Positions 14,239-64,000 of a DNA stretch of 64,000 bases are shown here, piece by piece. The notes under the pieces are model-generated. The model saw nothing but the letters and a program-made list of their open reading frames with translations, did no database searches and was not told where the DNA came from. The translations under genes were made by a program, and so were the position numbers. Numbering within the stretch: the first letter of the stretch is position 1; every line of letters begins with the position of its first letter. The stretch covers positions 8,649-72,648 of the forward strand of contig JBFXGK010000014.1 in NCBI GenBank assembly GCA_050178035.1. Reading direction: 5' to 3'. The DNA is from Kiritimatiellia bacterium (GTDB lineage Bacteria; Verrucomicrobiota; Kiritimatiellia; JAKQHR01).

Positions 14239-14274
14239 GAATATCCGCCTTGTAATCTATCCCCCGGCACAAGG

Positions 14275-14310: not shown

Positions 14311-14328
14311 TGCAAATGCCTTCCTTTT

Positions 14329-14586
14329 TCAGGAAACGGTTTCGCCCTTCTCGATGTTCATCCGCTTTCCGCTGCGGTCGAAACGAACGACGCCGTCCTT
14401 GAGCGCAAAGAGCGTGTAGTCGCGCCCCATGCCCACATTGACGCCCGGCAGGATGCGGGTGCCGACCTGACGCACCAGGATGTTGCCCGCGCGCACCGGC
14501 TGGCCGCCGAATTTCTTTACGCCGCGCCGCTGACTGTTGCTGTCGCGGCCGTTGCGGCTTGATCCCTGTCCTTTTTTATGTGCCAT
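14329..14586 (-). CDS. rpmA: 50S ribosomal protein L27.
   Basis: [16 protein letters not shown]... is the canonical L27 N-terminus. Confidence 0.95.
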
Positions 14587-14602
14587 ATCCGTGCCCTCCC
14601 GA

Positions 14603-17945: not shown

Positions 17946-18080
17946 CATTTTGGGGCTATTTTTCATGTTTTTCACTGTTTTTGAGCATTTTTGACCAAAA
18001 AATGGCCATTTTTTGCGATTTTTTGGCATTTTGGGCCTTTTTTTGCCAATTTTTGACACTTTTTGACAGCCGCGCGTCCG
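17946..18080 (+). repeat. Phased T-tract repeat block (family copy 2).
   Basis: Eleven T4-7 tracts at about 10-bp spacing. Shares the word TTTTTGAGCATTTTTGACCA with copy 1. Confidence 0.8.
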
Positions 18081-20022: not shown

Positions 20023-20049
20023 CGCCCGCAAAAGTTCCAACCATTGGAA

Positions 20050-20137
20050 GTTTTGCCGGAAAAAGTTCCAATCATTGGAAGTTTTTGCGCGGAAAGTTCC
20101 AATGATTGGAAAAAGTCTGTTCATCCGCGTTTTCCAT
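20050..20137 (+). promoter_or_regulatory. Triple tandem array of the pseudo-palindrome AAGTTCCAA-N3-TTGGAAGTTTT (period about 31 bp), immediately upstream of the murC-like gene.
   Basis: Copies lie at about 20050-20074, 20081-20107 and 20113-20137. The core has 6-bp arms TTCCAA / TTGGAA with a 3-nt spacer (CCA, TCA, TGA). Confidence 0.6.
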
Positions 20138-29109: not shown

Positions 29110-29198
29110 AAAAGTTCCAACCATTGGAAGTTTTGCGTAAAAAAGTTCCAATGATTGGAAGTTTTTTGGAGAAAAGTTCCAACCATTGGAAGTTTTGA
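29110..29198 (+). promoter_or_regulatory. Second triple tandem array of the AAGTTCCAA-N3-TTGGAAGTTTT pseudo-palindrome, immediately upstream of the glycogen synthase gene.
   Basis: Copies at about 29110-29134, 29140-29167 and 29172-29198. An extra half-site CATTGGAAAT lies at about 29096. Near-identical to the 20050-20137 array. Confidence 0.6.
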
Positions 29199-34740: not shown

Positions 34741-34862
34741 GATTTCCAATAAGAAAATCGTTTCGGGGTGTTTTTGCCATTTTTTGGCCGTTTTTGGGCG
34801 TTTTTTTGTGTTTTCGGCCATTTTTTGGCCATTTTGGTGCGTTTTTTGGCGTTTTTTGAACC
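34741..34862 (+). repeat. Phased T-tract repeat block (family copy 3).
   Basis: TTTTTGCCATTTTTTGGCCGTTTTTGGGCGTTTTTTTGTG... with tracts every 9-11 bp. Confidence 0.75.
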
Positions 34863-34953
34863 TTCAGGACGCGGAGACTGTTTCTCTTGTTATTATTCCT
34901 TTGTCAGAAAAAACTCAAACGGGTACCATATAGGCGATGGGAGGTGACGAAGC

Positions 34954-43394: not shown

Positions 43395-43500
43395 AAAATA
43401 TGCGAAAAGCGACCGTTTTTCGCGATTTTTTGCTGTTTTTGGCCTTTTTTGGCGTTTTTGAGCCAAAAATGAGCAATTTTGGCCGTTTTTGGCCGTTTTT
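43395..43500 (+). repeat. Phased T-tract repeat block (family copy 4).
   Basis: CGTTTTTCGCGATTTTTTGCTGTTTTTGGCCTTTTTTGGCGTTTTTGAGCC...GGCCGTTTTTGGCCGTTTTTT. Confidence 0.75.
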
Positions 43501-43503
43501 TAA

Positions 43504-46164
43504 CTATTTTGAGGCGTCTGTGTTAAAGCCGGAATTTTCAGCCTGGATCTGTCCCTGAGACAGTTCGCTCTTCAACTGCTCAACCGGACGCTGCTTCAAA
43601 TCCTCGATGGCCGCAGGGTCATTGCGCTGGGCCATGATCATCCAGCTCACTTTTGCGCCCGCAACGCCTCCGCCGACCACAAAGCGGTTCCCGCTGATTT
43701 CTTCCTTCACATACAGATTCATCTGCGCGCCCACGGGCGTCAGGAGATATTGCGGATTGATGTTCAGACGGTCGAAGTAAGCCGGAAGCTGCACAACGGC
43801 TTCACCATTTGCATCCAGCACTTCGGTTCCGTTGTAGATATTCTGGACCACCGGCCCCTCTGCGCAAAAATGCCGCAGCACTTTGTTTTCCGGGTCCAGC
43901 GGGTGATCAATGACAAAAGCTTTTGTGCTCCAGGCTCCAGTGCCGAATGTCTGGCGGTATTTGATGTTGGCATCCGCTGTACCGGTGCCGTCAATATAGA
44001 GCGTTCCGCGCACCGCCGTGCTGTTGTTATATAAATTAGTGATATTGTGCCCGATGGCAATGCGTTCGCTTCCATATGCTGTGCTGGCCCCGGCACCAAT
44101 GGCAATATTCGTGGAACTGGCCTGGGCTCCATATCCAATGGCCACGCCGGGACCAATGCCGGAATTTGCCGATCGGCCAACGGCAACGCCGCCGTTATAA
44201 CGCGCATTGGCACTGGGTCCCACTGCAACTCCACCACCATAATCGGCCATGGAACTGCTGCCGATGGCAACACCAGCATTGGAATGGACATTGGCCAAAT
44301 AGCCGATAGCTATGCCTGAGGCATGTGCATTGGCACCCCGTCCCACGGACACAGCATAACCATCCGCATTCGCGCCTGAGCCCAACGCCGTGGCGTTAGT
44401 AAGCGCAACAGCCTGATAGCCGACGGCCGTATCATACTGCTTCATAGCGCGGGCTTCAGATCCAATGGCCACAGACATGTTGGTTGCCTTGGCCAGATGA
44501 CCAATACCCACGGAGTAACTGAAACCTGTGGCGCCTGTGCCCATGGCGACGCCCCACCAGGCTCCATTGGCCGAGCTGCCCAGCGCAACCCCGCTCCATC
44601 CGTTCGCATCGTATCCGATCTCAATCGCACCACCCGGAGAGTTGGTGATGACAAGTTCGCCGCCGGCGCCGATATTGAATCCCAGAGCACCGGTCATCTG
44701 ATCGCCCGACACCTGAACATACTGCGATGGATCGCCAATGAGATTGCTCCAGCTTCCAGATCCAAAAGATGAGCGATAATAAATTCCCGTTCCGCCATCC
44801 AGATAAAGCGAACCGCGAATGGCGGCCGTATTGTTGATTGCGTTGGTGACATTGTGGCCAATGGCAATGCGTTCGCTTCCCGCACTGGCCCTTGCAGCCG
44901 CACCGATGGCAATGTTGGTTCTCGCACTGCTGAGGCTGAGGCTGTTGGCGGCGGCATCATTGATCGTCAGTGTGCCCGTCATGGTGTCGCCGGTTTTCTG
45001 CACAAAGCCTGTAGTTGAGCCGCCGCTGGCCAGCGCAGTCCACACCCCGCTTCCGAAGTTAGTGCGGAAATACACATTTGACCCGCCATCCAGAAACAGG
45101 GTGCCCCGCATGGCCACGGCGTTGTCCTGGGGAGTGGAAACCGCATGCCCGATGGCAATGCGCTCTGAACCCACGCCGGATGCCGCCATCCATCCGATGG
45201 CAATGTTGGTTGATGCTCCGCATGCGGAATTGCCGATGGCAATGCCGGTATTGTCGGCATCGGCAAATGCGCCGACCGCCACTCCGGCAAGAGATCCGTT
45301 AGCACTCCGGCCCACCGCCACTCCGGCGTTGTATCCATCGGCGGCTCTGCCGATGGCCGTGCCGTTGTTGCCCCCGTTGGCGTTTGCGCCCACCGCGGCG
45401 CCGGACCAGTAGCCGAAGGCGCCGTAGCCAAGGGCCGCGCCCATCTGGCTGCCATCCGCATAGGCGCCCACGGCGGCGCCCGTAATGCTTCCGTCACTGT
45501 TGTAGCCAACGCCCGCGCCGTAATCGGAACCGGCTGCCTGCGAACCAACGGCCACGCCCCGTGAGGACCCGTACGAGTTGTTGCCGACGCCCACGCCATA
45601 AGCCGATCCATTCGCCGTATTGCCGACCGTTGCCCCGTAATTGAAAGCATTGGCGTCAAATCCAACGGCTGCACCGTAGGAATTTCCGTTGGCGACATTG
45701 CCAACCATGACATCCTGCCCTGAGCTGGAGATAATCAAGTCGCTGCCGGCCCCGGCGTTCATGTGAAGCGGCCCGGTCATCGTGTCCCCGCTTTTCCGGA
45801 CGGCCGTGATGGCATAAGCCACCTGATTGATTTGCTCACGCGGAGACAGAGTGACACCGTTGACCGCCACCTCGATATAAACAATGGGATTCGTCAGTGC
45901 CGAATAAAGAGTGGGTGTCAGGGCGTTGATCCCAATCGTGGTTGAATAGAGTCCGTCCACGGCGGTTACCTTCTGGGTCTCGGCATATAGAAGCGTTCCG
46001 CCCGCGGAAGCATTATAAAGCCGAAAAACGTTGGTTACTGTACCGTTTACGAGATTCGTGCCAACAATCAGCCGACCCTGGTAATTGAACTTCGTATCGG
46101 TTTCCCCCGCATAAACAGCAGAAACCGCGAATGCGAGAAGAACTGCAAACATCAACCTCTTCAT
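43504..46164 (-). CDS. Giant secreted Gly/Ala-rich repeat protein (YadA-head-like NIAIG/ERIAIGH repeats). Adhesin or tail-fibre-like.
   Basis: Signal peptide MKRLMFAVLLAFAVSAVYA. Dozens of xAxGxxAxG repeats. Recurring TNIAIG(A/W)xAxx(A/G)SERIAIGH(N/A)(V/I)(S/T). Confidence 0.6.
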   Translation of the reverse strand: MKRLMFAVLLAFAVSAVYAGETDTKFNYQGRLIVGTNLVNGTVTNVFRLYNASAGGTLLYAETQKVTAVDGLYSTTIGINALTPTLYSALTNPIVYIEVAVNGVTLSPREQINQVAYAITAVRKSGDTMTGPLHMNAGAGSDLIISSSGQDVMVGNVANGNSYGAAVGFDANAFNYGATVGNTANGSAYGVGVGNNSYGSSRGVAVGSQAAGSDYGAGVGYNSDGSITGAAVGAYADGSQMGAALGYGAFGYWSGAAVGANANGGNNGTAIGRAADGYNAGVAVGRSANGSLAGVAVGAFADADNTGIAIGNSACGASTNIAIGWMAASGVGSERIAIGHAVSTPQDNAVAMRGTLFLDGGSNVYFRTNFGSGVWTALASGGSTTGFVQKTGDTMTGTLTINDAAANSLSLSSARTNIAIGAAARASAGSERIAIGHNVTNAINNTAAIRGSLYLDGGTGIYYRSSFGSGSWSNLIGDPSQYVQVSGDQMTGALGFNIGAGGELVITNSPGGAIEIGYDANGWSGVALGSSANGAWWGVAMGTGATGFSYSVGIGHLAKATNMSVAIGSEARAMKQYDTAVGYQAVALTNATALGSGANADGYAVSVGRGANAHASGIAIGYLANVHSNAGVAIGSSSMADYGGGVAVGPSANARYNGGVAVGRSANSGIGPGVAIGYGAQASSTNIAIGAGASTAYGSERIAIGHNITNLYNNSTAVRGTLYIDGTGTADANIKYRQTFGTGAWSTKAFVIDHPLDPENKVLRHFCAEGPVVQNIYNGTEVLDANGEAVVQLPAYFDRLNINPQYLLTPVGAQMNLYVKEEISGNRFVVGGGVAGAKVSWMIMAQRNDPAAIEDLKQRPVEQLKSELSQGQIQAENSGFNTDASK

Positions 46165-46299: not shown

Positions 46300-46360
46300 G
46301 CAATTCTGGGCGTGCCTATTCATTTTTGAGCATATTTGAGCAATTTCCGGCCGGCTTATA
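46300..46360 (+). repeat. Short member of the T-tract repeat family (copy 5), next to the island boundary.
   Basis: CATTTTTGAGCATATTTGAGCAATTT shares the TTTTGAGCA word. Confidence 0.5.
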
Positions 46361-46390
46361 ACGCAACAAGCAGTTCTTCCAACTGTTTGT

Positions 46391-46450
46391 AAGGGGGAAA
46401 ACTGGTAGAGGCGCAGGGACTCGAACCCTGGACCCGCTGATTAAGAGTCA
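46391..46450. repeat. attL-type direct repeat: duplicated 3' 48 nt of tRNA-Lys plus about 10 nt downstream.
   Basis: 46403-46450 is identical to 55571-55618. The flanking GGGGAAAACTGG matches GGGGAAAAACTGG. Confidence 0.85.
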
Positions 46451-46537
46451 ATAGCATACGTGCATTTAATGGGCTTTTTTTGATTGACTGTCTCAAAACT
46501 TGCTGTAATGTCCGGGGATATGTAGTCATATAAGGCA

Positions 46538-47899
46538 ATGGAACGCAATAGAGGAAAGGCGGCTAAAATGACACGGAAGCACCGGACCGGGAACTTATAC
46601 AGGCGGGGAAATGTTTGGTGGCTCAGGTACATGGTGGAGGGTAAAACCGTTTATGAATCCCTGCACTGCACCAGCCGGGATGATGCCGAGAAGGAGCGCA
46701 AGCGGATCATGCGCCCCTTGATGGCCGCCGACAAAGCCGACGTGCTGGCCAATATCTCAAAGCGACTGACCGACGCGAAGGACGAACAGGCCGCCGCCAA
46801 CGAGGAAGCCAATCCCCCGCTGGCAATCGCCGCCGCTTGGGATGCGTACTATGACAGCAAGAGCCGTCCCGATTCATCGGAGAGAACGCTGGCCGGATAT
46901 GAGAGCGCATGGAAAAGATTCAAGCGGTGGATCGAGAAGGAACACCCGGACATCAAACAGATGCGCGATGTTTCAAAGAACCTTGCCGCCGCTTACGCAA
47001 AAAAACTTGAAGCTGATGGAGTGACCGCCAGCACGTTCAACCAGCATATCGGGCTGATGCGTCTGGTATGGCGCACACTGGCAGAGGAGATTCGCGCAGG
47101 TTCAAACCCGTGGATGGACATGCGCCGGAAGAAACTCGGAGCGCAGAAGGTGGCGCACCGCCGCCGCAATCTGACACCTGAGCAATTTGATACCCTTCTA
47201 AAATGCGCTGGCAGTGCAGACATGCACGACCTTCTTTTTACTCTTGGATGGACTGGCCAGCGTCTCGCGGATATTGTTCTGTTGAAATGGAACTCAATAG
47301 ATTTCAAGCGTAAGGTTGTCACGATTCACCCGCTGAAATTGCGGCGCACAGGCAAGGAGGTTCATATTCCCCTGCTGCCACAGCTTGCGGATATTCTCAG
47401 AATGAGAAAGCGGAACGCCGCCGGGCCTCATGTGTTCCCCGAACTGGTGGAAGATTATCAGCGTGATCCGTCAGCACTGAGCAAGCGGATTGCCGCCGCC
47501 TTTGACAAGGCCGAACTGAACCCCCGCGAAAAACTGCCCGGAGTATCTAGGGCCGTTGTCGTTTATGGGGCGCATAGTCTGAGGCACTACTTCGCAACGC
47601 AAGCCCTTGCCGCAGGGATACCCTCCGAGATCGTGAAGCGAATCACCGGACACACCAGCGACACCATGCTTGCCAACTACGAGCATTTGGATGCGCGATT
47701 TATCGGAGAACTGGCGAACAAGCTACAGGCTCAACCACTGAACCCGCAGAAGCAAATCGCCGCACCGCCAGCGCATGAAGATAATCCCCTGCCCCCGTGG
47801 GCCGCGAAAATGATCGAGGGAATGACAGCAAAGAACTGGAAGAAAGTGAAAACCGAACTGCTCAAGATTCATGCGGAACCACAGGAGGCCGGACAATGA
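46538..47899 (+). CDS. int: Tyrosine site-specific integrase.
   Basis: C-terminal catalytic region HSLRHYFATQALAAGIP...ITGHTSDTMLANYEH (R, HxxR, Y). Confidence 0.85.
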   Translation: MERNRGKAAKMTRKHRTGNLYRRGNVWWLRYMVEGKTVYESLHCTSRDDAEKERKRIMRPLMAADKADVLANISKRLTDAKDEQAAANEEANPPLAIAAAWDAYYDSKSRPDSSERTLAGYESAWKRFKRWIEKEHPDIKQMRDVSKNLAAAYAKKLEADGVTASTFNQHIGLMRLVWRTLAEEIRAGSNPWMDMRRKKLGAQKVAHRRRNLTPEQFDTLLKCAGSADMHDLLFTLGWTGQRLADIVLLKWNSIDFKRKVVTIHPLKLRRTGKEVHIPLLPQLADILRMRKRNAAGPHVFPELVEDYQRDPSALSKRIAAAFDKAELNPREKLPGVSRAVVVYGAHSLRHYFATQALAAGIPSEIVKRITGHTSDTMLANYEHLDARFIGELANKLQAQPLNPQKQIAAPPAHEDNPLPPWAAKMIEGMTAKNWKKVKTELLKIHAEPQEAGQ

Positions 47900-48972
47900 A
47901 AAAGAAATCCTCACAGAACAAGAACCGCAAGCCCAAAAATATCAGCCTGTCTCTTGACTGCTTCGGGCTGTCAAACGCGGTGCATCCATATAGTGGAGAA
48001 GTTGGCGGGCAGGGAGAACAAGAGCGCATGAAGTGCAAGAAATGCGGCGGGCTGGCAATGTGGTACGGGGATGCAAATAACCCTGCCGCGCTGTATGTCA
48101 AATGCAAGAAATGCGGATGCCGCGAATATGATGTCGTGCCAAGAGAAGAGATTATTGATGATGGCGAAGGGGAGTTGAGAAAGCCACTGTCAAAAGCTGA
48201 TGCGAAGGCGGCGCGTGATGCCATATCGAAGGCAGAGGACAGCATGAGGGCGGCGCACAGCGTCTTGCTGAAATATGCCGGAAGCTCAGACTACGACATT
48301 GCCGCATATGCAATGCGCGTCCTGCTGAAAGAAACTCTTGCGCTTACTCAAAACGCGTCCGGTCTGTCTGGTGGAACAAATGCTGAGCTGGTGATGGCAA
48401 TCGCCGCGCAAAGTCATCATTGGCCTGTTATGGTGGGCATTCAACCCGAAAGCTGGAAGGCCGCAAGGAAACAAATCGAACGTATCGGACTTGGAACCAG
48501 AATCCCCATTGCTGAACAGTACCGCAACAAGAAAGCATTCAAACCTGATCGAGCCACAAACGCCATTGCATGGGAGATACTGCAAACAATTATAAAGACC
48601 CGCGCCGAGGTTCAGCAGTACGACCGGAACACCCTCAAGCATGGCCGCCTGAACGGCGAACCTGTGCCGGAATGGGTTTGCCTTTGTCGGGATCTGCCAG
48701 CACTGACACCCGATAAGAATATCCTGAAAGATTACCGCGATCTTGCCCGAAAGCACATTGCCACCATGAAAGCAAAAAGAGTTTCCAAGCATGAAACCGC
48801 TTTTGAGCTTCTTCTGCGAACCGCCGCCCCTGAATGGTTTGATTCCATTTGGGGCCGATGCACTGACGAGACAAGCCGGAAGAAAAGCAATCGCACTACT
48901 CGCGGCGCACTTCGTAAAAATGCCGAGGATGATATTCTGTCCGCACTGGTCACGATAGCAAAGAACCTTTGA
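47896..48972 (+). CDS. Hypothetical protein with an N-terminal C4 zinc ribbon. Translationally coupled to int (ATGA).
   Basis: CKKCGG...CKKCGC motif. No other recognisable domain. Confidence 0.4.
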   Translation: MKKKSSQNKNRKPKNISLSLDCFGLSNAVHPYSGEVGGQGEQERMKCKKCGGLAMWYGDANNPAALYVKCKKCGCREYDVVPREEIIDDGEGELRKPLSKADAKAARDAISKAEDSMRAAHSVLLKYAGSSDYDIAAYAMRVLLKETLALTQNASGLSGGTNAELVMAIAAQSHHWPVMVGIQPESWKAARKQIERIGLGTRIPIAEQYRNKKAFKPDRATNAIAWEILQTIIKTRAEVQQYDRNTLKHGRLNGEPVPEWVCLCRDLPALTPDKNILKDYRDLARKHIATMKAKRVSKHETAFELLLRTAAPEWFDSIWGRCTDETSRKKSNRTTRGALRKNAEDDILSALVTIAKNL

Positions 48973-49096
48973 CCCGTTTCCGCTGGTGAAAAAACAGGGG
49001 GCATTTTCACCCCTGCACCTCATTAGGACTTTTTGCGCCTATCCCATATTTTTCCCGCAGTGAGATTGTGAGTCTCAAAACACAGAAAGGGAAAAT

Positions 49097-49372
49097 ATGA
49101 GCAACAACATTGAACTTGCGCGACTGGCCGTTGCGGGACTGACGGCAAAGGATAGGGCCGTCCTGCTGAAAGACTTAACCCCGGCACAGCCGACCGAACA
49201 GCGACTTGTCCGGCGCAGGGAGGCCGCCCGTCTGCTGGCGTGTTCTGTGCGAACCATAGACCACTACGTCGAGAAGGGACTGCTTCGGCGCGTATCGGTT
49301 CCGGGGCTTAGCCGAGCAATCGGATTCAGACTGGCCGACGTTCAGGCAGTCATTGACGGGCGGGCCGCGTGA
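49097..49372 (+). CDS. AlpA/excisionase-like MerR-type HTH DNA-binding protein.
   Basis: RREAARLLACSVRTIDHYVEKGLL..GFRLADVQAVI. Confidence 0.6.
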   Translation: MSNNIELARLAVAGLTAKDRAVLLKDLTPAQPTEQRLVRRREAARLLACSVRTIDHYVEKGLLRRVSVPGLSRAIGFRLADVQAVIDGRAA

Positions 49373-49656
49373 CTGCCGCCACGTTATCCACGAAAGCCCA
49401 TGAAGGCCGTTCGTGGGATCAAAAACGTGAGGAGGAGCTTCAAAGAGTCAATGACGAAGCCCCCTCATGCCTAAAGACCTTCAAAGCCGCTTTTGGTGGG
49501 AAATCCCTTCGCGCCGGAATCAATGCTATGTGCCTTCAATGCACCTGCTTTGACCGTCTCTACATTCGGGACTGTCCCTCATCGAACTGCGGCTTGTGGC
49601 GTTATCGCCCGTTTCAAAAAATGAAGGGCCGGAGCCAGAAGGAGAGCAACCCATGA
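49369..49656 (+). CDS. Small Cys-rich hypothetical protein.
   Basis: Overlapping start. CLQCTCFDRLYIRDCPSSNC. Confidence 0.3.
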   Translation: MTAATLSTKAHEGRSWDQKREEELQRVNDEAPSCLKTFKAAFGGKSLRAGINAMCLQCTCFDRLYIRDCPSSNCGLWRYRPFQKMKGRSQKESNP

Positions 49657-49844
49657 AAGCGCATTGCCACATTTGCCAGCGCGAGACAGAAACCGCAATC
49701 CTTCAGCTTCGTGGTGGACTTGGAAATTGTTGCTCAGTCTGCCGAACCTGCCGGAAGGGAAAACCGTACTTCTCGAAGTCTGAAGTTTCAGCACTAACGG
49801 CCAAAGGCCAGAGGGTGGAACATGAACAGCACGAAATCCGATAA
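49653..49844 (+). CDS. Small zinc-ribbon protein.
   Basis: CHICQRE...CCSVCRTC. ATGA overlap. Confidence 0.3.
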   Translation: MKAHCHICQRETETAILQLRGGLGNCCSVCRTCRKGKPYFSKSEVSALTAKGQRVEHEQHEIR

Positions 49845-51081
49845 CCGCCCGACCAACTTTGACGGAATCACCGTCTCAATGGTTGCGAACTGCCAGCGCA
49901 CAAAAACCAGCGACGTTTCCTTTATGGCGGTGCTAAACGATATTCAGGCTGGCCGCTGGCGCGAAAAAGTTGAGGCCGTTCGTGAAGCTCAGTTGCAACA
50001 CGGAAAGCCTGCCGCCGATGCCCTAAAGAAGAAACTGCCCGCCGTTCTTTTCAGTGGAAAGTTTTCCCGGCGCGACAACGCTCACTTGCTGGAACACTCC
50101 GGCTTTATATGTGCCGATCTGGACGACTTGAACAGTGCATTGAGCCGGATACGCCAGCGCGTCGAAAGCGATCCGCACACCTTCGCTTGCTTCCTATCGC
50201 CCAGGGGAAACGGGCTGAAGGTTCTCTATCGCGTCCCGGCAAGCACTGATAACCACAAGGCGGCATGGAATCGCGTCGCGGCATACATTCGCGAGAACTA
50301 CAGCGTCGAGACAGACCCGACGTGCAAGGAAGTTGCCCGGCTGTGCTTCGTTTCCTTTGACCCCCATCTATATCTGAAACATGAGGCTGAAAACATCAAG
50401 TGTGATACAGAGGATACAGCACACACAGACAATTCAGCATATCCAGCAAATTCATGCCATGTGGGGGAGAAGGGAGTTGCCCCCAGCGCCCCCCGCCCCC
50501 CCACAACCGAAAAGGGGGCTATATTAGCTGTATCACACTCGGAGAAGGTGCAGCAGATCATCTTGCAGACTCAACCGAGCTTTGGAGGACAGCGGAATAA
50601 AAAGGTCTTGAATCTTGCACGCGGCCTGAAACTCGATGCCGGGCTAAGTGATGCGCCAAAATCCGAACTGAAAAAAATTGTCCGCGAATGGTTCCGGCTG
50701 GCACTTCCTCATATCAAGACCAAAGATTTTACGGAAACTTGGGCTGACTTTGTTTACGCATGGGATCGTGTTCGCACACCACTTTCAGAAGGGGCCATTA
50801 TTTCTGCTTGGCACCGAGTTGAAAGCGAACCGTTGCCGGAAGTGTGCGAGGCATACGCTGACAATGAGCGGGCAAGCCGCTTGTTGGCTCTCTGCTGGCA
50901 CCTGAAACGACAAGACGGCACCTTTTACCTGTCTATGCCACAGGCCGCGAAACTGCTCAAGATGCACCCTCATCAAGTTTTGCGGTTTTTGAAAATGTTT
51001 CGCGCCGACGGACTGTTTAGCATAATCGAAAAGGGCCAGTTGGAAAAAAGAAAAGCAACGCTGTACAGGTGGACGAAATGA
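49822..51081 (+). CDS. Replication/primase-associated protein (VirE-N / BT4734-like N-terminal domain).
   Basis: LPAVLFSGKFSRRDNAHLLEHSGFICADLDDL...FLSPRGNGLKVLYRV pattern, typical of VirE-N domains of phage/ICE primases. Confidence 0.45.
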   Translation: MNSTKSDNRPTNFDGITVSMVANCQRTKTSDVSFMAVLNDIQAGRWREKVEAVREAQLQHGKPAADALKKKLPAVLFSGKFSRRDNAHLLEHSGFICADLDDLNSALSRIRQRVESDPHTFACFLSPRGNGLKVLYRVPASTDNHKAAWNRVAAYIRENYSVETDPTCKEVARLCFVSFDPHLYLKHEAENIKCDTEDTAHTDNSAYPANSCHVGEKGVAPSAPRPPTTEKGAILAVSHSEKVQQIILQTQPSFGGQRNKKVLNLARGLKLDAGLSDAPKSELKKIVREWFRLALPHIKTKDFTETWADFVYAWDRVRTPLSEGAIISAWHRVESEPLPEVCEAYADNERASRLLALCWHLKRQDGTFYLSMPQAAKLLKMHPHQVLRFLKMFRADGLFSIIEKGQLEKRKATLYRWTK

Positions 51082-51566
51082 CCGCGCCGCCTGTGCTGAA
51101 CATCGTTTGCGATTCCAGAGAGCAACTGCCCTTTGCCTTCGCTGGCTATCCCGTGGAAGTGACAACCGGAACCCTGGAGGCCGGGGACTACAGCCTATCG
51201 GGATTCACGCGGCGCATTGCCATAGAGAGAAAAGCCCTGTCCGATCTGGTTGGCTGTCTGGGCGGTGAACGTGACCGCTTCGAGAGAGAGCTTGCAAGGC
51301 TCCGGGGTTATGACTTCGCCGCCGTCGTAGTCGAAGCCCCTGCCGAACTGCTGCAACAGGGGCGGTATCTTGGCAAACTGGATTGCAAGGCCGCATGGCA
51401 AAGCGTTCTGGCGTTCAGTCAGCGATATAGATTGCCGTTCTACTTTTGCCGGGACAGGGACGAAGCCGAAGCGGTTTGCTTAGACCTTTTGCGGCATTAT
51501 GCCCGTGACCGCTGGAAAGAACTTCGGGCTTTAACAGACAAACCAAAACAGAAAGGATCAATATGA
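51069..51566 (+). CDS. ERCC4-type (XPF/Mus81-like) nuclease.
   Basis: CDSREQ...GDYSLSG...IERKALSDLVGC matches the ERCC4 signature (GDx(n)ERKx3D). Confidence 0.55.
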   Translation: MDEMTAPPVLNIVCDSREQLPFAFAGYPVEVTTGTLEAGDYSLSGFTRRIAIERKALSDLVGCLGGERDRFERELARLRGYDFAAVVVEAPAELLQQGRYLGKLDCKAAWQSVLAFSQRYRLPFYFCRDRDEAEAVCLDLLRHYARDRWKELRALTDKPKQKGSI

Positions 51567-52177
51567 CCACCGAGAAAACCACGAACAACACCCCGCTTGA
51601 CCCGTCACAGCCGCTATCAAATGCCCGCTATGAAACTATGTGCGAGTTACGGGTTAATGATATGCCTCAGCATGAGTGCTATTCAAAGACAGCAGACAGG
51701 CGGATTAAAAAGAAAACCGCTATGGTTAGAGCGTCTGAAATCTTTTCCCGCCCCGACGTTCGGGCGCGTTTGAATTTCTTACGTTATGAAGCGATAAAGG
51801 CCAGCCAGCAACCGCCCGCGCCCTTCATGCAAACAATTCGGGATCAACTGGACGGGAAAGCCCCACTGTCCAGCGGCGACATGATGGAGCTTGCCCGTAA
51901 AAAGGCAGAACAGGCTTTAGCATTGGCCGAGACTCCGCAAGATGTTGTGAAGGCGGTTCAGGTCTGCCGTGATTTAGGCGTGATAACTTCGGGAGACAGC
52001 GACGACGTAGACCCCACCGCCGTTTTAAGATATGTTCTTTCATGCGCTGGCAAGGACGGCCAAACGATTGTCAGGGAGCTTGGCGGGTTGCGGTTTATGG
52101 TGGACTCATTCTGTGACATTTGCAAGGTCAGCCTGGACGATCTACACGAGATCACGAGGCCAGCGGTCAAAGAGTAG
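51563..52177 (+). CDS. Terminase small-subunit-like protein.
   Basis: ECYSKTADRRIKKKTAMVRASEIFSRPDVRARLNFL resembles the TerS pattern (AGYSxKTA...A..L...P.V...I). Confidence 0.4.
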   Translation: MTTEKTTNNTPLDPSQPLSNARYETMCELRVNDMPQHECYSKTADRRIKKKTAMVRASEIFSRPDVRARLNFLRYEAIKASQQPPAPFMQTIRDQLDGKAPLSSGDMMELARKKAEQALALAETPQDVVKAVQVCRDLGVITSGDSDDVDPTAVLRYVLSCAGKDGQTIVRELGGLRFMVDSFCDICKVSLDDLHEITRPAVKE

Positions 52178-54300: not shown

Positions 54301-55089
54301 CTATTGTGATATTAGACCCAGGAATAGAAAGAACAGCAAAATACCGCCGATGACCATTACCCCAAGACAAGAGCAGGATGAATTCTTGCTCCTATCGTCA
54401 CTCCCGGCAACTCCAGATTCTATTAGCTTTTCTCTGTATGCGAGAGCCTGTTCAATCATGCTGCTTGCTTGTCCTATCCCAAGAGTGGATAAGACTGTCT
54501 GATCTTTAAATCCAAGAGCGATCAGATAATCAATTTGTTTTTGCGTTGCAGGTCTTTCATTTGGTTCACGTTTAGGGCATTTCAATTTACGACTCAAATC
54601 AGGGGCATATTCGCCCTGTAGCTTTTCTTTCCGATAACCCCGATCAAGTTCTCCCATCTCCTTTAGATATGACGCCCTAATTAATGATGGAAAGAATTCT
54701 GTAATCACATCTTCAAGAAAATATTCATCCGCGCATAATTGTTCTGCATGTTCCTCGACATATTGAAAAATCTTCTTTTTCTTGGCCTCAGATATGTTCT
54801 TAACCACCTCATTGGCATATAGGTCGTAAAGGGAAGCTTCGTAGTCATTTTTGAAATCGACCACATATTTACTGACAGCGGGCTTACGGGTTTTCTCGAT
54901 TGCGGGTGGTTTCTTCGGTGCTTTCTTTTTGCGTGTTCTGGGTGAATCGGCATCAGGCTTCTGCTGTTCTGGAATACTAATAGACTGCTTGCACGTTGGG
55001 CATTCAATATATTCCCCCGCCATCTCCGGCGGCGCTTCTAGGGGCTGCTGGCAATGGGGACAACCAAAAGCAATATCAGTCATTCTCAT
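54301..55089 (-). CDS. Zinc-ribbon protein with a C-terminal TM anchor (cargo gene 1).
   Basis: FGCPHCQQPLEAPPEMAGEYIECPTCKQSISIP. C-terminal LGVMVIGGILLFFLFLGLI. Confidence 0.45.
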   Translation of the reverse strand: MRMTDIAFGCPHCQQPLEAPPEMAGEYIECPTCKQSISIPEQQKPDADSPRTRKKKAPKKPPAIEKTRKPAVSKYVVDFKNDYEASLYDLYANEVVKNISEAKKKKIFQYVEEHAEQLCADEYFLEDVITEFFPSLIRASYLKEMGELDRGYRKEKLQGEYAPDLSRKLKCPKREPNERPATQKQIDYLIALGFKDQTVLSTLGIGQASSMIEQALAYREKLIESGVAGSDDRSKNSSCSCLGVMVIGGILLFFLFLGLISQ

Positions 55090-55352
55090 TTCCTCCCGTA
55101 TGCGGCTTGCATGAAAAGGATGCTAGACCCGCCCCCATTATGCAGTCAAGCCGAACATTCAACGTGAAAGAGAGGACCGGGAATAGAATCCGCTCGTTGA
55201 CCCATCGAGAGAAACCGAAGAACTCCCCGAAGTAATGGTATGACCGCCCCCGCCCCGCTTTGTGTCAGGGATGGCCGAGACGGGCCGCCGTGACCGCCAG
55301 AAACGACAATCACCCCCAGAGAGGTATCAACACCCTACCCGCTCCCCGGCCT

Positions 55353-55452
55353 CATTTGGGACATCATTTGAGACACTGCCATACCCGCTGACTACACGCT
55401 GAATCTTTCGGACTGTCCTAAACTGTCTCAAATGTAAAAGGATTTTGAGACA
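55353..55452. promoter_or_regulatory. Cluster of four CATTTGRGACA motifs (three direct, one inverted), near attR. Candidate integrase arm-type sites or cargo-operon operator.
   Basis: Motif copies at 55353, 55365, 55424 (inverted) and 55442. The same motif (CTGTCTCAAAA) occurs at 46488-46498 near attL. Confidence 0.55.
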
Positions 55453-55570
55453 TATCCGCGAAAAGCCATTGAGAGCAAAAAAAGGCAACAAGGGCAAATG
55501 GCGATATTCGTTTGACTATTGCAAATATTGATCGAAATACAGTTTTTCCCACTGTGTTCATTGGGGAAAA

Positions 55571-55646
<76 letters not shown>

Positions 55647-55719
55647 CCACCAAAAGGATGCAAATTAGTACCGCAAGACGCCGCGTGTGGCAATCCCGCA
55701 AATCATTTTTTTTTGATTT

Positions 55720-56916
55720 TTATTGCGCAAGGGCTTCCGCAATGCTCTCGCAGACATATTTCATATTGGAGTCATTGAGGCCAGCGACGTTGATGCGGCC
55801 GCCGCCCACCATGTAGATCGCCTTCTGGTCGCGCAGGAAGGCGACCTGAGCATCGTTCAGCCCGCTGAAGGAGAACATCCCGTGCTGCTTCTCAATGAAA
55901 GTGAAGTCGCCCGGCACCTTCATGGACTTGAGCCCGTCCACCAGATGCGTGCGCAAGGATGCAATCCTGTTGCGCATCCCGGCCACTTCACCAAGCCACT
56001 GCTTGCGCAGGGATGCATCGCCCAGAATGGTCTGCACGATGATGCCGCCGTGCGCGGGCGGGTTGGAATAGCTGACGCGAATGCGCGTCAGCACATGACT
56101 GAAGGCCGCAGTCGCCCGGTCAGGAGTTCCGCCGATAACGGTCAGCGCGCCCACGCGGTCGCGGTACAGCCCGAAGTTCTTGGAGAACGAACTGGCCACC
56201 AGCATCTCGGGATTCTCCGCAGCCAGCGCGAGAATGGCCGCGCGGTCATCCTCAAGGCCGGCGCCAAAACCCTGATAGGCAAAATCCACAAACGGAAGCC
56301 ATCCGGCTTGTTTCGCAATGCCGGAAATTTCCGTCCACTGCGCAGCGGTCAAGTCAACACCGGTCGGATTGTGACAGCAGGCATGGAGCAGAACAATGTC
56401 CTCCGCCGGCACCTTGCGCAGCGTCTTTTTCATCCCCTCAAAGTCGAGGCCTTTGGACGCGGCGTCATAATAAGGATATTCTTTGATGGGGAACCCGGCC
56501 GCTGTGAAGATGCCCTTGTGGTTGGCCCATGTGGGTGAACTGATCCAAACGGCAGCGCCTGGCGCAAAGAGTTTCAGAAAGTCGGCGCCGATGCGAAGCG
56601 CGGCAGTCCCGCCAGGCGTGTGGGCTGTGCAGGCGCGTCCGCCCAAAACCAGTTCGTGCCCCTCGCCCGCCATCAGTTCGCGGACGCATTTGCCGTATTC
56701 GGGCGTTCCTGAAATGGAGTAATATGTTTTGGTCTTCGCCGAGGCCAGTATGCGCCTCTCCGCCTCCTTTACGGAATCGAGAATCGGGGTGGTTCCCTGC
56801 TCGTCCTGATAGACCCCGACACCCAGGTTGACTTTCCCCGGACGCGGATCTTTCTTGAAGGCTTCAGTCAGTCCCAGAATCGCATCGGCCGGGGCGGGCT
56901 GGATTTCCTCGAACAT
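55720..56916 (-). CDS. aspC: Aspartate/aromatic aminotransferase (class I).
   Basis: MFEEIQPAPADAILGLTEAFKKD...VNLGVGVYQDE. PLP-lysine region SFSKNFGLYRDRVG. Confidence 0.85.
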   Translation of the reverse strand: MFEEIQPAPADAILGLTEAFKKDPRPGKVNLGVGVYQDEQGTTPILDSVKEAERRILASAKTKTYYSISGTPEYGKCVRELMAGEGHELVLGGRACTAHTPGGTAALRIGADFLKLFAPGAAVWISSPTWANHKGIFTAAGFPIKEYPYYDAASKGLDFEGMKKTLRKVPAEDIVLLHACCHNPTGVDLTAAQWTEISGIAKQAGWLPFVDFAYQGFGAGLEDDRAAILALAAENPEMLVASSFSKNFGLYRDRVGALTVIGGTPDRATAAFSHVLTRIRVSYSNPPAHGGIIVQTILGDASLRKQWLGEVAGMRNRIASLRTHLVDGLKSMKVPGDFTFIEKQHGMFSFSGLNDAQVAFLRDQKAIYMVGGGRINVAGLNDSNMKYVCESIAEALAQ

Positions 56917-56931
56917 ATGTTTTCCTCTCCT

Positions 56932-58089
56932 TTACGGATAATACTGCTGCACCAGTTTTTTGATGGTGTCTTGTTCAACCTTGATGATCTTCATCTCGCG
57001 GGCGGCGTTTTCAGGCGAATCGGAGGCGTGGGCGGCATTGACCATCACATCGCTTCCGAATTCCTTTCGCACGGAGCCGGGCTGGGCCTTGCTGGGATCG
57101 GTGGGCCCAAGGATGTCGCGAATTTTGCTGATCGCGTTCTCGCCGGCATAGACCAGCGCGAGGCACTTGCTCTTGCCGGGACATTCCTTTCCATCAGCGC
57201 CGCAGGAAGGAGCCCACCAGCCGGTCATGAACTCAATGATCTTGTAGAACTGATGATCGGCCACCAGCGGACCGAACATTTCACCGAGCTGCTCTTTCAT
57301 GCTTTCCGGGATGGCAACCCCGAATTTCTTTGAAAGGGCTTCGTAGGCCTGCTCGCCGGCGGATCCCTTGAACTTCTTGCGCAGAAATTCCCGGACCGGC
57401 CCGTAGAATTCTTCGGCCTCGCCCACACTCATCTGATGCAGCTTCGCGCCGACAATGCGCAGGCCGGAACCCGAAAACAAGTCAATGATGTTTCCCGCGC
57501 GCGAGCTCGGAAAGCGGAAATTGTCGGGCTTGATCAGGACAAGGGTCTTCTCAATATTGTCGTCCGCCAGATCAAAGGCGTCGGCGATAATGCCGCCGTC
57601 TTTTGCGCTGTATTCAGCCCAGAGTTTCAGCGTGGCCGCGCAGGATTTTGCCGTGGGGCCGATCAGAACAGCCGGTTCGACATAGAGCACCTGCCCGTTG
57701 GGCCCGGTGACGTAATCGCCGTAGATGTCGCGGACCGTGCGGCCGGAAGTCATGTTGTAACGAACCTTTCCGGTGGCTTCACGGATGCGGTCAATGGCAT
57801 TGTCGCCTTCAAACAGAAGCATGAACACCCGGTGACGGCGGTTGTTCTTTGAATCGGGCATGTAGGTGCGGAGAACATAATCGGCGATGATGTCGCGCTG
57901 ATCCTCGTCGACCTCCTGATCCTCACGGATCATGGCGGCATATTTTTCGGTCAGCGCCCTGCTGGGCCCGAAAATGCGTGCGCCGACCAGGTCGAGTCCG
58001 GTGCGAATGTAGCGGCCAATCACGCCGCCTGTGCGCGATTTTCCGATCGTGTAAGGATTTATCAATACAAATGCCAGTTCTTTTGCCAT
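56932..58089 (-). CDS. Tandem nucleoside-diphosphate-kinase-fold protein. Degenerate N-terminal NDK-like domain plus a canonical C-terminal NDK domain.
   Basis: C-terminal domain has LVLIKPD...GENAISKIRDILGPTDP...NAAHASDSPENAAREMKI. The N-terminal domain (FVLINPY...) lacks the catalytic His. Start MAKELAF at 58089. Confidence 0.6.
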   Translation of the reverse strand: MAKELAFVLINPYTIGKSRTGGVIGRYIRTGLDLVGARIFGPSRALTEKYAAMIREDQEVDEDQRDIIADYVLRTYMPDSKNNRRHRVFMLLFEGDNAIDRIREATGKVRYNMTSGRTVRDIYGDYVTGPNGQVLYVEPAVLIGPTAKSCAATLKLWAEYSAKDGGIIADAFDLADDNIEKTLVLIKPDNFRFPSSRAGNIIDLFSGSGLRIVGAKLHQMSVGEAEEFYGPVREFLRKKFKGSAGEQAYEALSKKFGVAIPESMKEQLGEMFGPLVADHQFYKIIEFMTGWWAPSCGADGKECPGKSKCLALVYAGENAISKIRDILGPTDPSKAQPGSVRKEFGSDVMVNAAHASDSPENAAREMKIIKVEQDTIKKLVQQYYP

Positions 58090-58118
58090 AATGGCCTCCA
58101 AATTTTTGCATACGCTAT

Positions 58119-59438
58119 TTGAATGAAGCCTTTCAATCAAGACTGGAAATGAAGAATCGCACAAATCATAATCCGGCCGCTGCCGGCGGAACAAGCCGGC
58201 GCACAGAACTGGCACTCGGCATCCTTGAGCAGGTATGCAGCGAGGTCGCCCGGAATAATCCGGCAGACGCTTCATTGCAGGCCGTTTTCCGTAAGCACCG
58301 TGAATACGGGTCACGCGACCGCAGGTTCTACTCTCGCGTTGTTTTTTCATATTTCCGCTGGCGCGGCTGGCTGGAAGGCGCCGCGCCGGTCAAGGCCTGC
58401 GCCGTCGCCCTGCTGCTCGATGCCGAGAACGTGAACGACGATCTCCGGGCCGTCTGCACTGATGCCGGATTTTCCGAAGGGAAGATGAAGCCGATGGCGG
58501 CGATGACACTCCCGGAGAAGGCGGCGATGGCGGGCAGCCTGCTGGGACGAAGCGTGGCGGTGGAGAACATCATCCCGAAGAATGTGCTCGATAGGATTGC
58601 ATTCCCCCGCCATCTGAATCCCTGGGAAGCCCGCTCACAGTTCCTGGAGTCCATGCAAATCCGGCCGCCCGCATGGCTGCGTTTCGCAACGGCGGCCGAT
58701 GCTATGGCTATCGAAGCGCCCGGCGCCCAGGCGCATCCCCGCATCCCGACGGCGCTTGCGCTCCCCGAAAATTTCAACCGCGGACTGCTCAACACCCCCG
58801 AGGGCAGAAAGGCGGATGTGCAGGATTTATCTTCTCAGTGCGCCGGATTGATCGCGGCGCCGCAGGCCGGCGAAAGCTGGTGGGACGTCTGTTCCGGCGC
58901 GGGCGGCAAGGCGCTGCACCTGGCGGCGCTGTCCGGATGCCGCGCAGAAATACTGGCGACCGACCTCCGTCCGTCGAGTCTCGGACAGATCCGTGAACGC
59001 GCGGAACGCACGGGTATGCGCGGCATCCGAACAGCCGTGCTCGACGGAAGCAAAGACAGCCCCGGATGCGGCGATTTCGACGGAATCATTGTGGACGCCC
59101 CCTGCTCCGGGATTGGGACATGGCCCCGCAATCCGGATGCCCGATGGAGATTCGATCCGTCAAACATCAATCGCAGCGCGGCTGTCCAGAAAAGGATCGT
59201 GATGCATGTGTCGCAGTTCCTCCGGCCCGGCGGCCGCCTGATCTATGCGGTCTGCACCTGCACGGCCGACGAGACAGACGCTGTGGCGGCCGCATTCCTC
59301 AATGAAAAGAGGAATTTCGAGCCGCTTGATTTCACGCATCCGCTGACCGGAGCCGCCTGCCCGGGGCAATGCATGATCTGGCCTGCGGACGGGCCATGCA
59401 ATGGGATGTTCATCGCAGGATTCAGAAAAGCTGAATAA
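58119..59438 (+). CDS. rsmB: 16S rRNA m5C methyltransferase, RsmB/Sun (NOL1/NOP2) family.
   Basis: NusB-like N-terminus, SAM motif DVCSGAGGKALHLA, catalytic DAPCSGIGTWPRNPD and PGGRLIYAVCT. Confidence 0.8.
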   Translation: MNEAFQSRLEMKNRTNHNPAAAGGTSRRTELALGILEQVCSEVARNNPADASLQAVFRKHREYGSRDRRFYSRVVFSYFRWRGWLEGAAPVKACAVALLLDAENVNDDLRAVCTDAGFSEGKMKPMAAMTLPEKAAMAGSLLGRSVAVENIIPKNVLDRIAFPRHLNPWEARSQFLESMQIRPPAWLRFATAADAMAIEAPGAQAHPRIPTALALPENFNRGLLNTPEGRKADVQDLSSQCAGLIAAPQAGESWWDVCSGAGGKALHLAALSGCRAEILATDLRPSSLGQIRERAERTGMRGIRTAVLDGSKDSPGCGDFDGIIVDAPCSGIGTWPRNPDARWRFDPSNINRSAAVQKRIVMHVSQFLRPGGRLIYAVCTCTADETDAVAAAFLNEKRNFEPLDFTHPLTGAACPGQCMIWPADGPCNGMFIAGFRKAE

Positions 59439-62370: not shown

Positions 62371-62472
62371 TAAAAATCGCTGTTTTTTGGCCTTTTTTGA
62401 GCATTTTTAAACGTTTTTAGGCATTTTTGGCCATTTTTTGGCCATTTTGGGCCGTTTTTTGTGTTTTTTCAG
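62370..62472 (+). repeat. Phased T-tract repeat block (family copy 6).
   Basis: TGTTTTTTGGCCTTTTTTGAGCATTTTTAAACGTTTTTAGGCATTTTTGGCCATTTTTTGGCC... Confidence 0.75.
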
Positions 62473-62477
62473 ACTTT

Positions 62478-64000
62478 TTACGGGAAAGTGACCATTGTGC
62501 GGTAATAGCCAGTCGCACCGTTGTTGGTTACTGAAAGCACGACTGCACCCCCGATGCCGGGCTTGTTCAGGCCCATACGCGTCCAGGTTATGCTCCCGGT
62601 CAGGTTTGTGGTCCAAATGAGGTCGTACACGCGGTCGCTCGATGTCGGCGGGCCCGTGGTGATGTTCAGGACGGCCGTGCCCACGGCGCTGGTGATGGTG
62701 TTCTGGTAGAACGAGAGTATGTTCAGCGGATCGGTGTCAGTGATATATTCATAATGATTGTCTTTCCCGTCGCCGTCGGCATCGTCGCCCGGATTGTTGG
62801 TCAGGCTCGTGAATTTCGTCCATTCCCACGCATCCGCGATACTGTCGAGATCGGAGTCGAACGGAACCACGATGACGGTTGCATTCGTCACCACGCTGTT
62901 GGTTTCGGCCTGTCCGTCATCGGCGACGAAGACAACCGCATTGGTCGTGTTCGCATGAACGACGCCCGCGGTCCATGAGAAGGTCGTGCCGACATAAGAT
63001 GCCCCGGCCGGCGCGACGGTGTTGGTCAGGGTCACGGGATCACTGTCCGAATCGCTGGCGGTCACGGCAAAGTTGGTGGCCGCGCCCACAGGCAGGATGT
63101 GCGGGCCGGGCAGGCTGATCACCGGCGCATGGTTCTGCGCCATTTCCTCAATCTTCAGGTACTGCACCAGCTCGCCGTCGTTGGTGATCGCGTTGACCGT
63201 GCCGCCCTCCAGATTCACCCAGACGCCGCTGCTGTAGAGTTCCGCGCCCGACTTATTGGTCGGCCAGAGATACACACCGGCATCACTCGAGGCCAGGTTG
63301 CGCACGTTGTAGAATTTGCCGGTATCCATCCCCAGCAGACTCCACGGTCCTGTCAGATCATAAGTGGCCGACGCGCCCGCATGCGCCTCGCCGTGCCGGA
63401 ACAGCAGCGCGAACGCCAGCACGACATCCTTGTCGATCGGCGAGGCATAGGCCTCCTCGTATTTCGCCACCGCCATGATTTTACCCTCGTCGCCGCCACC
63501 GACCTTGCTCAGGAAATACCGGTTCTGGCTCTGGAGCGCGGGGCTGTTCAAACGCGCCCAGTTCACGCGGCCGTACCACTGCGCAAGGCCTCCGTTGTTC
63601 GGCGGAGGATTGGACCAGACCATCAACTGGTTCCACTGCTTGAATTGCGGGATGTACTTGCCAAAGTTCTCCTCGTGGTCGGTGCGGAAGCCGTCGTAGT
63701 ACCAGAAGGACGGATCGGAATTATAGTTCTGGATGCCCTGCTCCTGCCCGTAAAACATCATCGGAATGCCGTCCACCGTTGAGACCGCCCCGTAGCGGCT
63801 GGCCGTCAGCCAGGTGTCGTTGTCCGGCAGCACTTCGTCATGCGAGGTCAGGTTCAGCAGCACCGCGCCGCCGTTGTAGCTGCTGCGCCGGTCTTCCAGC
63901 GCGCTGCGGATGGCCCACGAATCGTTGATGTGCGCCTGCGTGAACTGAAACACGAGGTTCTCGTTCAGCACGTCGAAATGGCGGTTCGACCGGTAGCCGG
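62478..64000 (-). CDS. GH13 (alpha-amylase family) glycoside hydrolase, C-terminal portion. 5' end lies beyond the window. C-terminal FN3-like tail ending GYYRTMVTFP.
   Basis: FYGQEQG and LLNLTSHDE resemble GH13 conserved regions. The ORF stays open to the window edge. Confidence 0.5.
   Translation of the reverse strand, partial: GYRSNRHFDVLNENLVFQFTQAHINDSWAIRSALEDRRSSYNGGAVLLNLTSHDEVLPDNDTWLTASRYGAVSTVDGIPMMFYGQEQGIQNYNSDPSFWYYDGFRTDHEENFGKYIPQFKQWNQLMVWSNPPPNNGGLAQWYGRVNWARLNSPALQSQNRYFLSKVGGGDEGKIMAVAKYEEAYASPIDKDVVLAFALLFRHGEAHAGASATYDLTGPWSLLGMDTGKFYNVRNLASSDAGVYLWPTNKSGAELYSSGVWVNLEGGTVNAITNDGELVQYLKIEEMAQNHAPVISLPGPHILPVGAATNFAVTASDSDSDPVTLTNTVAPAGASYVGTTFSWTAGVVHANTTNAVVFVADDGQAETNSVVTNATVIVVPFDSDLDSIADAWEWTKFTSLTNNPGDDADGDGKDNHYEYITDTDPLNILSFYQNTITSAVGTAVLNITTGPPTSSDRVYDLIWTTNLTGSITWTRMGLNKPGIGGAVVLSVTNNGATGYYRTMVTFP

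Follow-up and report, generated by a model that had tools for sequence, protein, structure and literature searches.

A 9.17-kb island in a tRNA-Lys(CTT) gene, with probable arm-type integrase sites at its two ends

The window, i.e., the whole stretch of 64 kb of DNA that was analysed, is from a Kiritimatiellia MAG and contains an island of 9.17 kb whose ends are two 58-bp direct repeats, 98% identical. The left repeat (attL side, 46393-46450) is a displaced 3' part of tRNA-Lys, and the right repeat (attR side, 55563-55620) lies within the intact tRNA-Lys(CTT) gene (55573-55648, minus strand). The repeats comprise the tRNA from nucleotide 29 through its 3' end, plus 10 nt past the tRNA; nucleotide 29, which is the limit of the repeat, lies three bases inside the 5' strand of the anticodon stem. 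A scan against Rfam returned the tRNA and no other match. For elements that integrate in tRNA genes, a repeat ending in the anticodon stem is expected when the crossover takes place in the anticodon loop and the stem provides the inverted core sites. The repeats of two related islands described below, L007 and L043, stop at the identical tRNA position, and that of a third one, L017, stops two bases deeper in the same strand of the anticodon stem. Since these end points in the tRNA match the expected pattern, the crossover point is probably the anticodon loop (55611-55617), the core being the anticodon stem-loop, GCTGA-loop-TCAGC. Outside the exact repeat, the hairpin located after the 3' end of the tRNA exists in a second, diverged version (77% identical) that belongs to the island itself (55540-55572 vs. 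46371-46402). This copy is consistent with an island that provides, after integration, the tRNA 3' half together with a terminator.

The genes of the island include int, a gene coupled to int, a gene for an HTH protein, a primase-like gene, a gene for an ERCC4-type nuclease and three cargo genes on the minus strand. The gene translationally coupled to int (47896-48972) has no assigned function. The HTH protein (49097-49372, plus strand, 91 aa) is excisionase-like: it matches HTH_17/MerR weakly and phrog_66 (excisionase and regulator) with E 3.9e-7, and it has homologues in L013, L007 and L017. The primase-like protein has a BT4734-like N domain. The cargo genes, without assigned function, end at 55089; upstream of the first of them (54301-55089, minus strand) lies a gap of 483 bp, which holds the cluster of repeated words described below. 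No capsid or conjugation genes were seen in the island. The gene set at 46568-52177, which comprises small genes without assigned function in addition to those for the integrase, the HTH protein, the primase-like protein and the nuclease, resembles the organisation of phage satellites (PICI-like), and a small-terminase gene (Terminase_2) is present in the related L007 island (14135-14587).

It is plausible that the island is still excision-competent: int, the two arms and the two repeats are all intact, the island has a gene for an excisionase-like protein, and between two hosts the int module is far better conserved than the host flank (96.6 vs. 81%). The attP junction is predicted from the sequence as ...TGTTCATTGGGGAAAAACTGG...GAGTCA joined to ATAGCATACGTGC, and the empty attB is predicted as the left flank (46350-46392) plus the intact tRNA.

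The tyrosine integrase gene, int (46568-47899, plus strand), reads inward from the left junction and encodes a protein of 443 aa in which all the catalytic residues are present (R232, K257, H336, R339, H362 and Y371). The longest open reading frame of int has its first codon at 46538 (453 aa). The start in homologues and in the database entry is the ATG at 46568, which is preceded by GGAAAGG, a ribosome-binding-like sequence. In the AlphaFold model of Int, three strands (residues 9-13, 16-23 and 26-31) and a helix (37-53), with pLDDT values of 79-90, are followed by a long helix and then by the SAM-like core-binding and catalytic domains. The arm-binding domain of lambda Int is described as three strands plus a helix, and the model matches that description. 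The best structural matches of the full-length model are lambda Int and Tn1549 Int. The N-terminal 100 residues modelled alone gave no significant fold match in the PDB (Foldseek). Among 18 members of the family, Pfam detects DUF6538 in 11 (best E 1.3e-4) and Arm-DNA-bind_2 in three (E 0.023), all of these matches being weak. A PDB profile search with the N-terminal domain returned only matches with E above 0.8, the N-domain of a CP4-like integrase appearing at E 1.5.

A short word is repeated in both ends of the island. Its 9-nt core, TTTGRGACA, has five exact copies in the 64-kb window vs. 0.79 expected (0 of 100 shuffles reach five); all five are within the two island ends and none is found elsewhere. 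With one mismatch, the remainder of the window is at background level (16 found vs. 10.6 expected). The repeat cluster that the first-pass annotation had noticed at both ends of the element is thus real, and the search for further copies that it proposed yields no other exact core in the window. That annotation had given the word as an 11-mer, CATTTGRGACA, with four copies within 100 bp. The four positions are correct, but the 11-mer is exact in three copies only (55353, 55365 and 55424, the last one inverted), the copy at 55442 matching the 9-nt core with two mismatches to the 11-mer; moreover, when up to one mismatch is allowed, the 11-mer shows no excess over chance in the window (3 found vs. 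2.33 expected). Likewise, the copy at 46488-46498, presented as the reverse complement of the motif, is where it was placed and shares the 9-nt core, but not the full 11-mer.

On the tRNA side, i.e., in the P arm, the two distal copies are CATTTGGGACA (55353-55363, plus strand) and CATTTGAGACA (55365-55375, plus strand), the second 12 bp after the first; TRF reports them as a repeat of period 12 with 2 copies. Copy 1 is invariant in the sister island (see below) and belongs to an insertion specific to the window/L003 type; the lone spacer base between the two copies varies (T/A) with respect to the sister island while the words are constant. The distal copies are followed by a tandem GCTGACT/GCTGAAT (55387-55402, plus strand, 11 bp apart), which is a candidate accessory core-type or excisionase site. 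Then comes a proximal tandem pair on the minus strand. Its first member, CTGTCCTAAA on the plus strand (55413-55422), is a degenerate sixth copy located exactly 10 bp ahead of the copy at 55423; its position is homologous to that of the first tandem word of L013, L007 and L017, and it is invariant in the sister island. Its second member is CTGTCTCAAATG on the plus strand (55423-55434), of which 55424-55434 is the reverse complement of CATTTGAGACA. The last word, ATTTTGAGACA (55442-55452, plus strand), is inverted with respect to the proximal pair, and homologous inverted copies exist in L013 and L017. Read as TGTCTCAAA, the order of the tRNA-side arm is therefore: two inverted copies 12 bp apart, the GCTGACT/GCTGAAT tandem, two direct copies 10 bp apart and one inverted copy, i.e., four good copies and one degenerate copy in total. 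The distance of these words is 111-210 bp when measured from 55563, the inner edge of the right direct repeat, and about 160-260 bp when measured from the anticodon loop, where the crossover probably takes place.

On the other side, the int-side (P') arm holds CTGTCTCAAAA on the plus strand (46488-46498, the word being on the minus strand), 38 bp inside the left direct repeat and 70 bp upstream of the int ATG (46568). It is one good direct copy of TGTCTCAAA; the second tandem position is degenerate (about 6/11).

Relatives of the island were sought by a metagenome scan with the integrase, which gave 40 loci, mostly on contigs too short to contain both arms. A scan of genome contigs with the integrase returned two irrelevant weak matches only, and a scan of IMG/VR found no close relative. 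The closest loci, L003-L006 and L024, come from other metagenomes and have an integrase 97% identical to that of the window. This sister island is again at tRNA-Lys, with a host right flank only 81% identical and an unrelated left flank. Between the window and the sister island, int and the int-side arm are 96.6% identical, the replication genes 87% and the tRNA-side arm 84.5%, and the cargo is rearranged. All five words hold their position in L003-L005, where both arms are present; the sequence of L006 ends ahead of the tRNA-side arm and thus contains the int-side copy only, and L024 was outside the word scan. In the tRNA-side arm (55296-55562), the positions within words are identical in 55 cases out of 55 between the window and L003, vs. 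158 out of 212 for non-word positions (Fisher p 7.5e-7); in other words, 25% of the non-word positions differ and none of the 55 word positions does. Because L003, L004 and L005 are identical, this footprint of conservation is a comparison of two distinct sequences only.

It must be added that the island is a mosaic. Against L003/L004, the 96.6% identity of the int module (46395-47910) is to be compared with 81% for the flanking host housekeeping DNA (55621-58162), and the replication module and the tRNA-side arm are about as diverged as the host. This mosaicism suggests that islands have recently exchanged their int module, or that a transfer from host to host has occurred.

The layout, at homologous positions of the two arms, is also found in islands with integrases of 56-70% identity, but the word is a different one in each of them (TGTGCCCAA, TGTGCGTT, TGTGGTAT). 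In L013 (integrase 70%, tRNA-Lys), whose word is of the type TGTGCCCAA, the tRNA-side arm holds CTGTGCCCAAT, ATGTGCCCAAT and an inverted TTGGGCACA, and the region upstream of int holds CTGTGCCCAAA and CTGTGCCTAAT. In L017 (integrase 56%, tRNA-Thr), the corresponding words are CTGTGGTAGTT, CTGTGGTATTT and an inverted AAATACCACA in the tRNA-side arm, and CTGTGGTGTTT and CTGTGGTATAT upstream of int. The word of L007 (integrase 68%, tRNA-Thr) is TGTGCGTT, and a more distant island, L043 (integrase 41%), uses GTATTAC likewise. When the tRNA-side arms are aligned in register, the ACTGT...TGT frame and the GCTGAYT tandem are constant; the word positions alone change, and they change in concert. A comparison with related elements, which had been proposed as a check of the motif, thus leads to the following picture: islands of the same type keep the word, and more distant ones keep the layout with a word of their own.

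The concerted change of the two arms can be expressed as a cross-matrix: the int-side 9-mer of each island matches its own tRNA-side arm three to four times and the arms of the other islands zero times. The observed value is reached by 0-1 of 200 shuffles for the window, L003, L013, L017 and L043; for L007 the signal is weak (30 of 200). Moreover, over 15 loci, the distance between words is correlated with the distance between Int N-domains (residues 6-50; Mantel r 0.31, p 0.004), and it is uncorrelated with that between Int residues 100-390 (r 0.11, p 0.14). The only gene common to all the word-bearing loci is int.

Other arrangements were seen among the related loci. In L013, two related islands are found in tandem at tRNA-Lys (846-1141 and 7207-7502), and their junction (tRNA-side arm, tRNA fragment, int-side arm) reproduces the arrangement of attP, which suggests repeated integration at an occupied site. 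In L010-L012 (integrase 67%), a full tRNA-Arg lies directly upstream of int, and no second repeat was found within 10 kb. The int-side arm of L010 (9960-10000, CTGTCTATAAACTGTCTATAATGTAAAAGGATAGAGACA) is homologous, spacer included, to the tRNA-side cluster of the window (55413-55452), and in L017 both arms consist of two direct copies and one inverted copy; the two arm clusters thus look like duplicates of one module.

The region upstream of int is readable in about 25 loci. In the subfamily with at least 50% integrase identity, the layout is a tRNA fragment, about 30 AT-rich bp, TTGA and two words 10-11 bp apart, often with an inverted word 5-50 bp upstream of the int ATG. About 15 further loci have tandem words 10-11 bp apart directly after TTGA, several of them with an inverted copy shortly ahead of the ATG. 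By script, TTGAYT was found in 18 loci and in none of 8 others; in 13 of the 18 the tandem words are mutually identical at 6 or more positions out of 9. In the window, a promoter-like TTGACT-N16-TAATGT (46484-46511, plus strand) precedes int and has the arm word inside its spacer. A stricter standard sigma-70 scan reported no promoter upstream of int, the promoters of this phylum being uncharacterised, and for this reason a looser family-level pattern was used together with shuffles: of 16 family loci, 15 have their words within TTGAYT-N16-18-TWnnnT, vs. a shuffle mean of 0.46. In KplE1, the P' arm sites of intS overlap Pint, and it has been shown experimentally that IntS represses its own gene (PMC2951348). 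By analogy, the location of the int-side word within a promoter-like spacer suggests that int is autoregulated as in KplE1. A copy of the word with one mismatch, AGTCTCAAA (49071-49079), was considered as a possible regulatory site, since it lies 18 bp upstream of the excisionase-like gene; it is not conserved in L003, L013 and L007 and was thus taken as a chance match.

All these features make it quite likely that the repeats serve as arm-type binding sites in a lambda-like attP, carried by a 9.17-kb island in the anticodon loop of tRNA-Lys(CTT). Such an arm-type (P/P') reading had been put forward by the first-pass annotation, and it is strengthened by several observations: (i) the repeated word is distinct from the core/overlap sequence and is present in both arms flanking the crossover; (ii) it is conserved while the neighbouring arm DNA diverges (in two distinct sequences); (iii) the two-arm layout recurs in related elements; (iv) at the same positions, the word changes with the cognate integrase: it matches the other arm of its own island only, and its variation follows the N-domain.

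The integrase would accordingly be heterobivalent in the sense of lambda Int. Its catalytic and core-binding domains would act on the anticodon stem-loop (GCTGA-loop-TCAGC), and its N-terminal domain (three strands plus a helix) would bind the TGTCTCAAA words. Bridging between arm and core on bent DNA may build the integrative intasome and, with the excisionase-like protein, the excisive one; the HTH protein may direct excision, possibly through the GCTGAYT tandem. As the int-side word is placed between the -35-like and -10-like hexamers, the bound integrase should also repress its own gene, i.e., Int at 46488-46498 would repress Pint.

Another, improbable possibility is that the words are bound by another protein of the island (the HTH protein, 49097-49372, or the product of the gene coupled to int, 47896-48972) and act as RDF or regulator sites. 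All four complete island types encode the excisionase-like protein, which diverges alongside the words (63, 59 and 39% identity), so that in complete islands it also co-varies with them; head-to-tail tandem repeats are typical of excisionase sites (e.g., lambda Xis and TorI); and the N-domain of Int alone has no significant fold match. Against this, the words are present in both arms and in both orientations, and TTTGRGACA does not have the disposition expected of RDF sites, i.e., head-to-tail repeats found in a single arm only, on the core side of the arm sites, and matching a conserved RDF. Moreover, in L010, L015, L018 and L020 the sole gene in common with the window island is int, in the contig sequence available (up to about 10 kb beyond int); homologues of the excisionase-like protein and of the int-coupled protein were not called in that interval, and yet the tandem words are kept. 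The distance between words also follows the Int N-domain specifically, and a conserved accessory protein would more likely use the constant pair of GCTGAYT, which is separate from the words.

It is very unlikely that the cluster (55353-55452) is an operator or enhancer of the minus-strand cargo genes, the int-side copy being then coincidental or a second operator. This alternative had been mentioned in the first-pass annotation since the copies near attR lie in the leader of the cargo operon (the gap of 483 bp described above), and it is not supported: the homology with the sister island starts at about 55296, the 200 bp adjoining the cargo start being unalignable, so that this cargo-proximal DNA and the adjacent gene are not shared with the sister island while the word block is kept. 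More than 200 bp separate the cluster from the only promoter-like site for the cargo gene (55149-55120). In L007, a plus-strand gene reads towards the homologous arm, which is located after the 3' end of that gene and does not precede an operon, and islands with unrelated cargo hold the same layout. Across relatives, the cluster is thus linked neither to the same genes nor to their promoter. For annotation, this means that the long cargo "leader" is to be considered as recombination-site DNA and not as regulatory DNA of the cargo.

In host intergenic DNA, the window contains five phased T-tract arrays (TTTTTGGCC, TTTTTGAGCA, TTTTGGGCCG; 6-9 units with a period of about 10 bp) at 4337-4442, 17948-18074, 34761-34897, 43415-43521 and 62374-62489, which look like intrinsically curved DNA or binding arrays; TRF places them at 4358-4435, 18004-18068, 34767-34858, 43413-43500 and 62384-62459. 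That the motif would be a local variant of these repeats or a chance cluster, without any role in the island, has hardly any chance of being true: a short run of the same kind (46322-46345) does lie just outside attL and TTTGAG-CA is one base apart from TTTGAGACA, but the exact core is absent from the arrays, TRF reports the island repeat apart from them, the words are two copies with a period of 12 or 10 bp and with inverted copies among them (vs. 6-9 copies at 10 bp), they are conserved in an island whose host flank is only 81% identical, and sister islands have unrelated words at the same positions.

Returning to the arm-type sites, the GCTGAYT tandem must be distinguished from the words. 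It corresponds to the anticodon-stem core half-site, GCTGAYT, the stem-loop on the plus strand being GCTGATT...AGTCAGC. The tandem GCTGACT/GCTGAWT is constant among islands that have different arm words, and it is found in L013 (7249-7266 and 889-906), L007 (15739-15756) and L017 (14988-14993). Three roles are conceivable for it: an accessory site of the core type for the integrase, a site for the excisionase, or the fossil of an older attP. In the first case, it might represent a kind of accessory core-type site not described for lambda; as to the second, the tandem at 55387-55402 would fit the description of an RDF site better than the words. The anticodon stem in question is common to tRNA-Lys(CTT) and tRNA-Thr(TGT), which may explain the switching of target within the family.

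The feature belongs to a well-known kind, that of the lambda/KplE1-type arm sites; it is the expected solution, and no concept is thus changed. The likeness to lambda attP (arm sites P1, P2 and P'1-P'3, bound by the Int N-domain) includes: (i) a short word unrelated to the core, present in both arms and in tandem about one helical turn apart; (ii) an integrase with an additional domain at its N-terminus, for which three strands and a helix are predicted, and with a long linker helix after it; (iii) an excisionase-like gene in the element and an int gene adjoining the P' arm (attL); and (iv) the predicted structure, lambda Int being one of the closest structural matches when the full-length model is compared. 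On the contrary, the attB of lambda is not a tRNA, whereas here it is a tRNA anticodon loop, and the word is also different. The multi-copy arm is here the int-distal one (four good copies and one degenerate, up to about 260 bp from the crossover) and the int-proximal arm has one strong copy. Moreover, int has here its own promoter-like site within the arm, whereas lambda int is transcribed from PI/PL; binding is here a prediction.

Haemophilus phage HP1 and mycobacteriophage L5 integrate in tRNA genes by a crossover in the anticodon loop and have multiple arm sites. As in HP1 and L5, the block of identity extends here from the 3' end of the tRNA into the anticodon stem (5' strand), a replacement for the 3' half of the tRNA is brought by the element, and both arms of a long attP contain several (here probable) arm-type sites for the integrase. 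The words have no detectable sequence relationship with those of HP1 and L5, and the tRNA-side arm contains in addition a tandem of core half-sites (GCTGAYT).

The likeness to the KplE1/HK620-type module of E. coli (IntS and TorI, with an attL that overlaps the intS promoter) concerns the organisation: int reads inward from a partial-tRNA junction, the P' arm-type sites fall on the -35/-10 region that precedes int (here that of a predicted promoter), int and the RDF gene (torI in KplE1) are non-adjacent and in separate transcription units, and negative autoregulation of int is predicted, here from the sequence (PMC2951348). The differences are the host phylum (Kiritimatiellia), the word, the target (tRNA-Lys instead of argW) and the fact that, across the family, the spacer of the predicted promoter is occupied by two words in tandem.

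The comparison delimits a complete and apparently functional attP/int/xis module (about 55296-55620 joined to 46444-46567, plus int). It comes from the Kiritimatiellia/Verrucomicrobiota (PVC) group, the mobile elements and genetic tools of which are barely characterised, and it could seed site-specific integration vectors for tRNA-Lys or tRNA-Thr.

The series of integrase-word pairs is also a ready data set on the evolution of arm-binding specificity. In the N-terminal sheet, a few residues seem to vary along with the words: WWLRYM goes with TGTCT, YWLKYMV..GRLIRQ with TGTGCC and FWLQYRIEGR with TGT(A/G)TGC. It is conceivable, though rather doubtful, that the series amounts to a recognition code, i.e., at least 10 orthologous integrases whose arm words differ at set positions within a constant TGT-N6 frame, the sites being homologous in both arms. 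If a simple residue-to-base code were true, arm specificity could be read from the sequence and re-engineered, and the embedded promoter would make of each pair a self-contained, orthogonal and autoregulated integration switch.

Besides the island, the window contains two other arrays, at 20030-20111 and 29110-29197, each with about three copies of a 31-bp unit that includes a AAGTTCCAAYSATTGGAACTT-like palindrome. They are inverted with respect to each other and 9 kb apart, and thus bracket the 20.1-29.1 kb segment.
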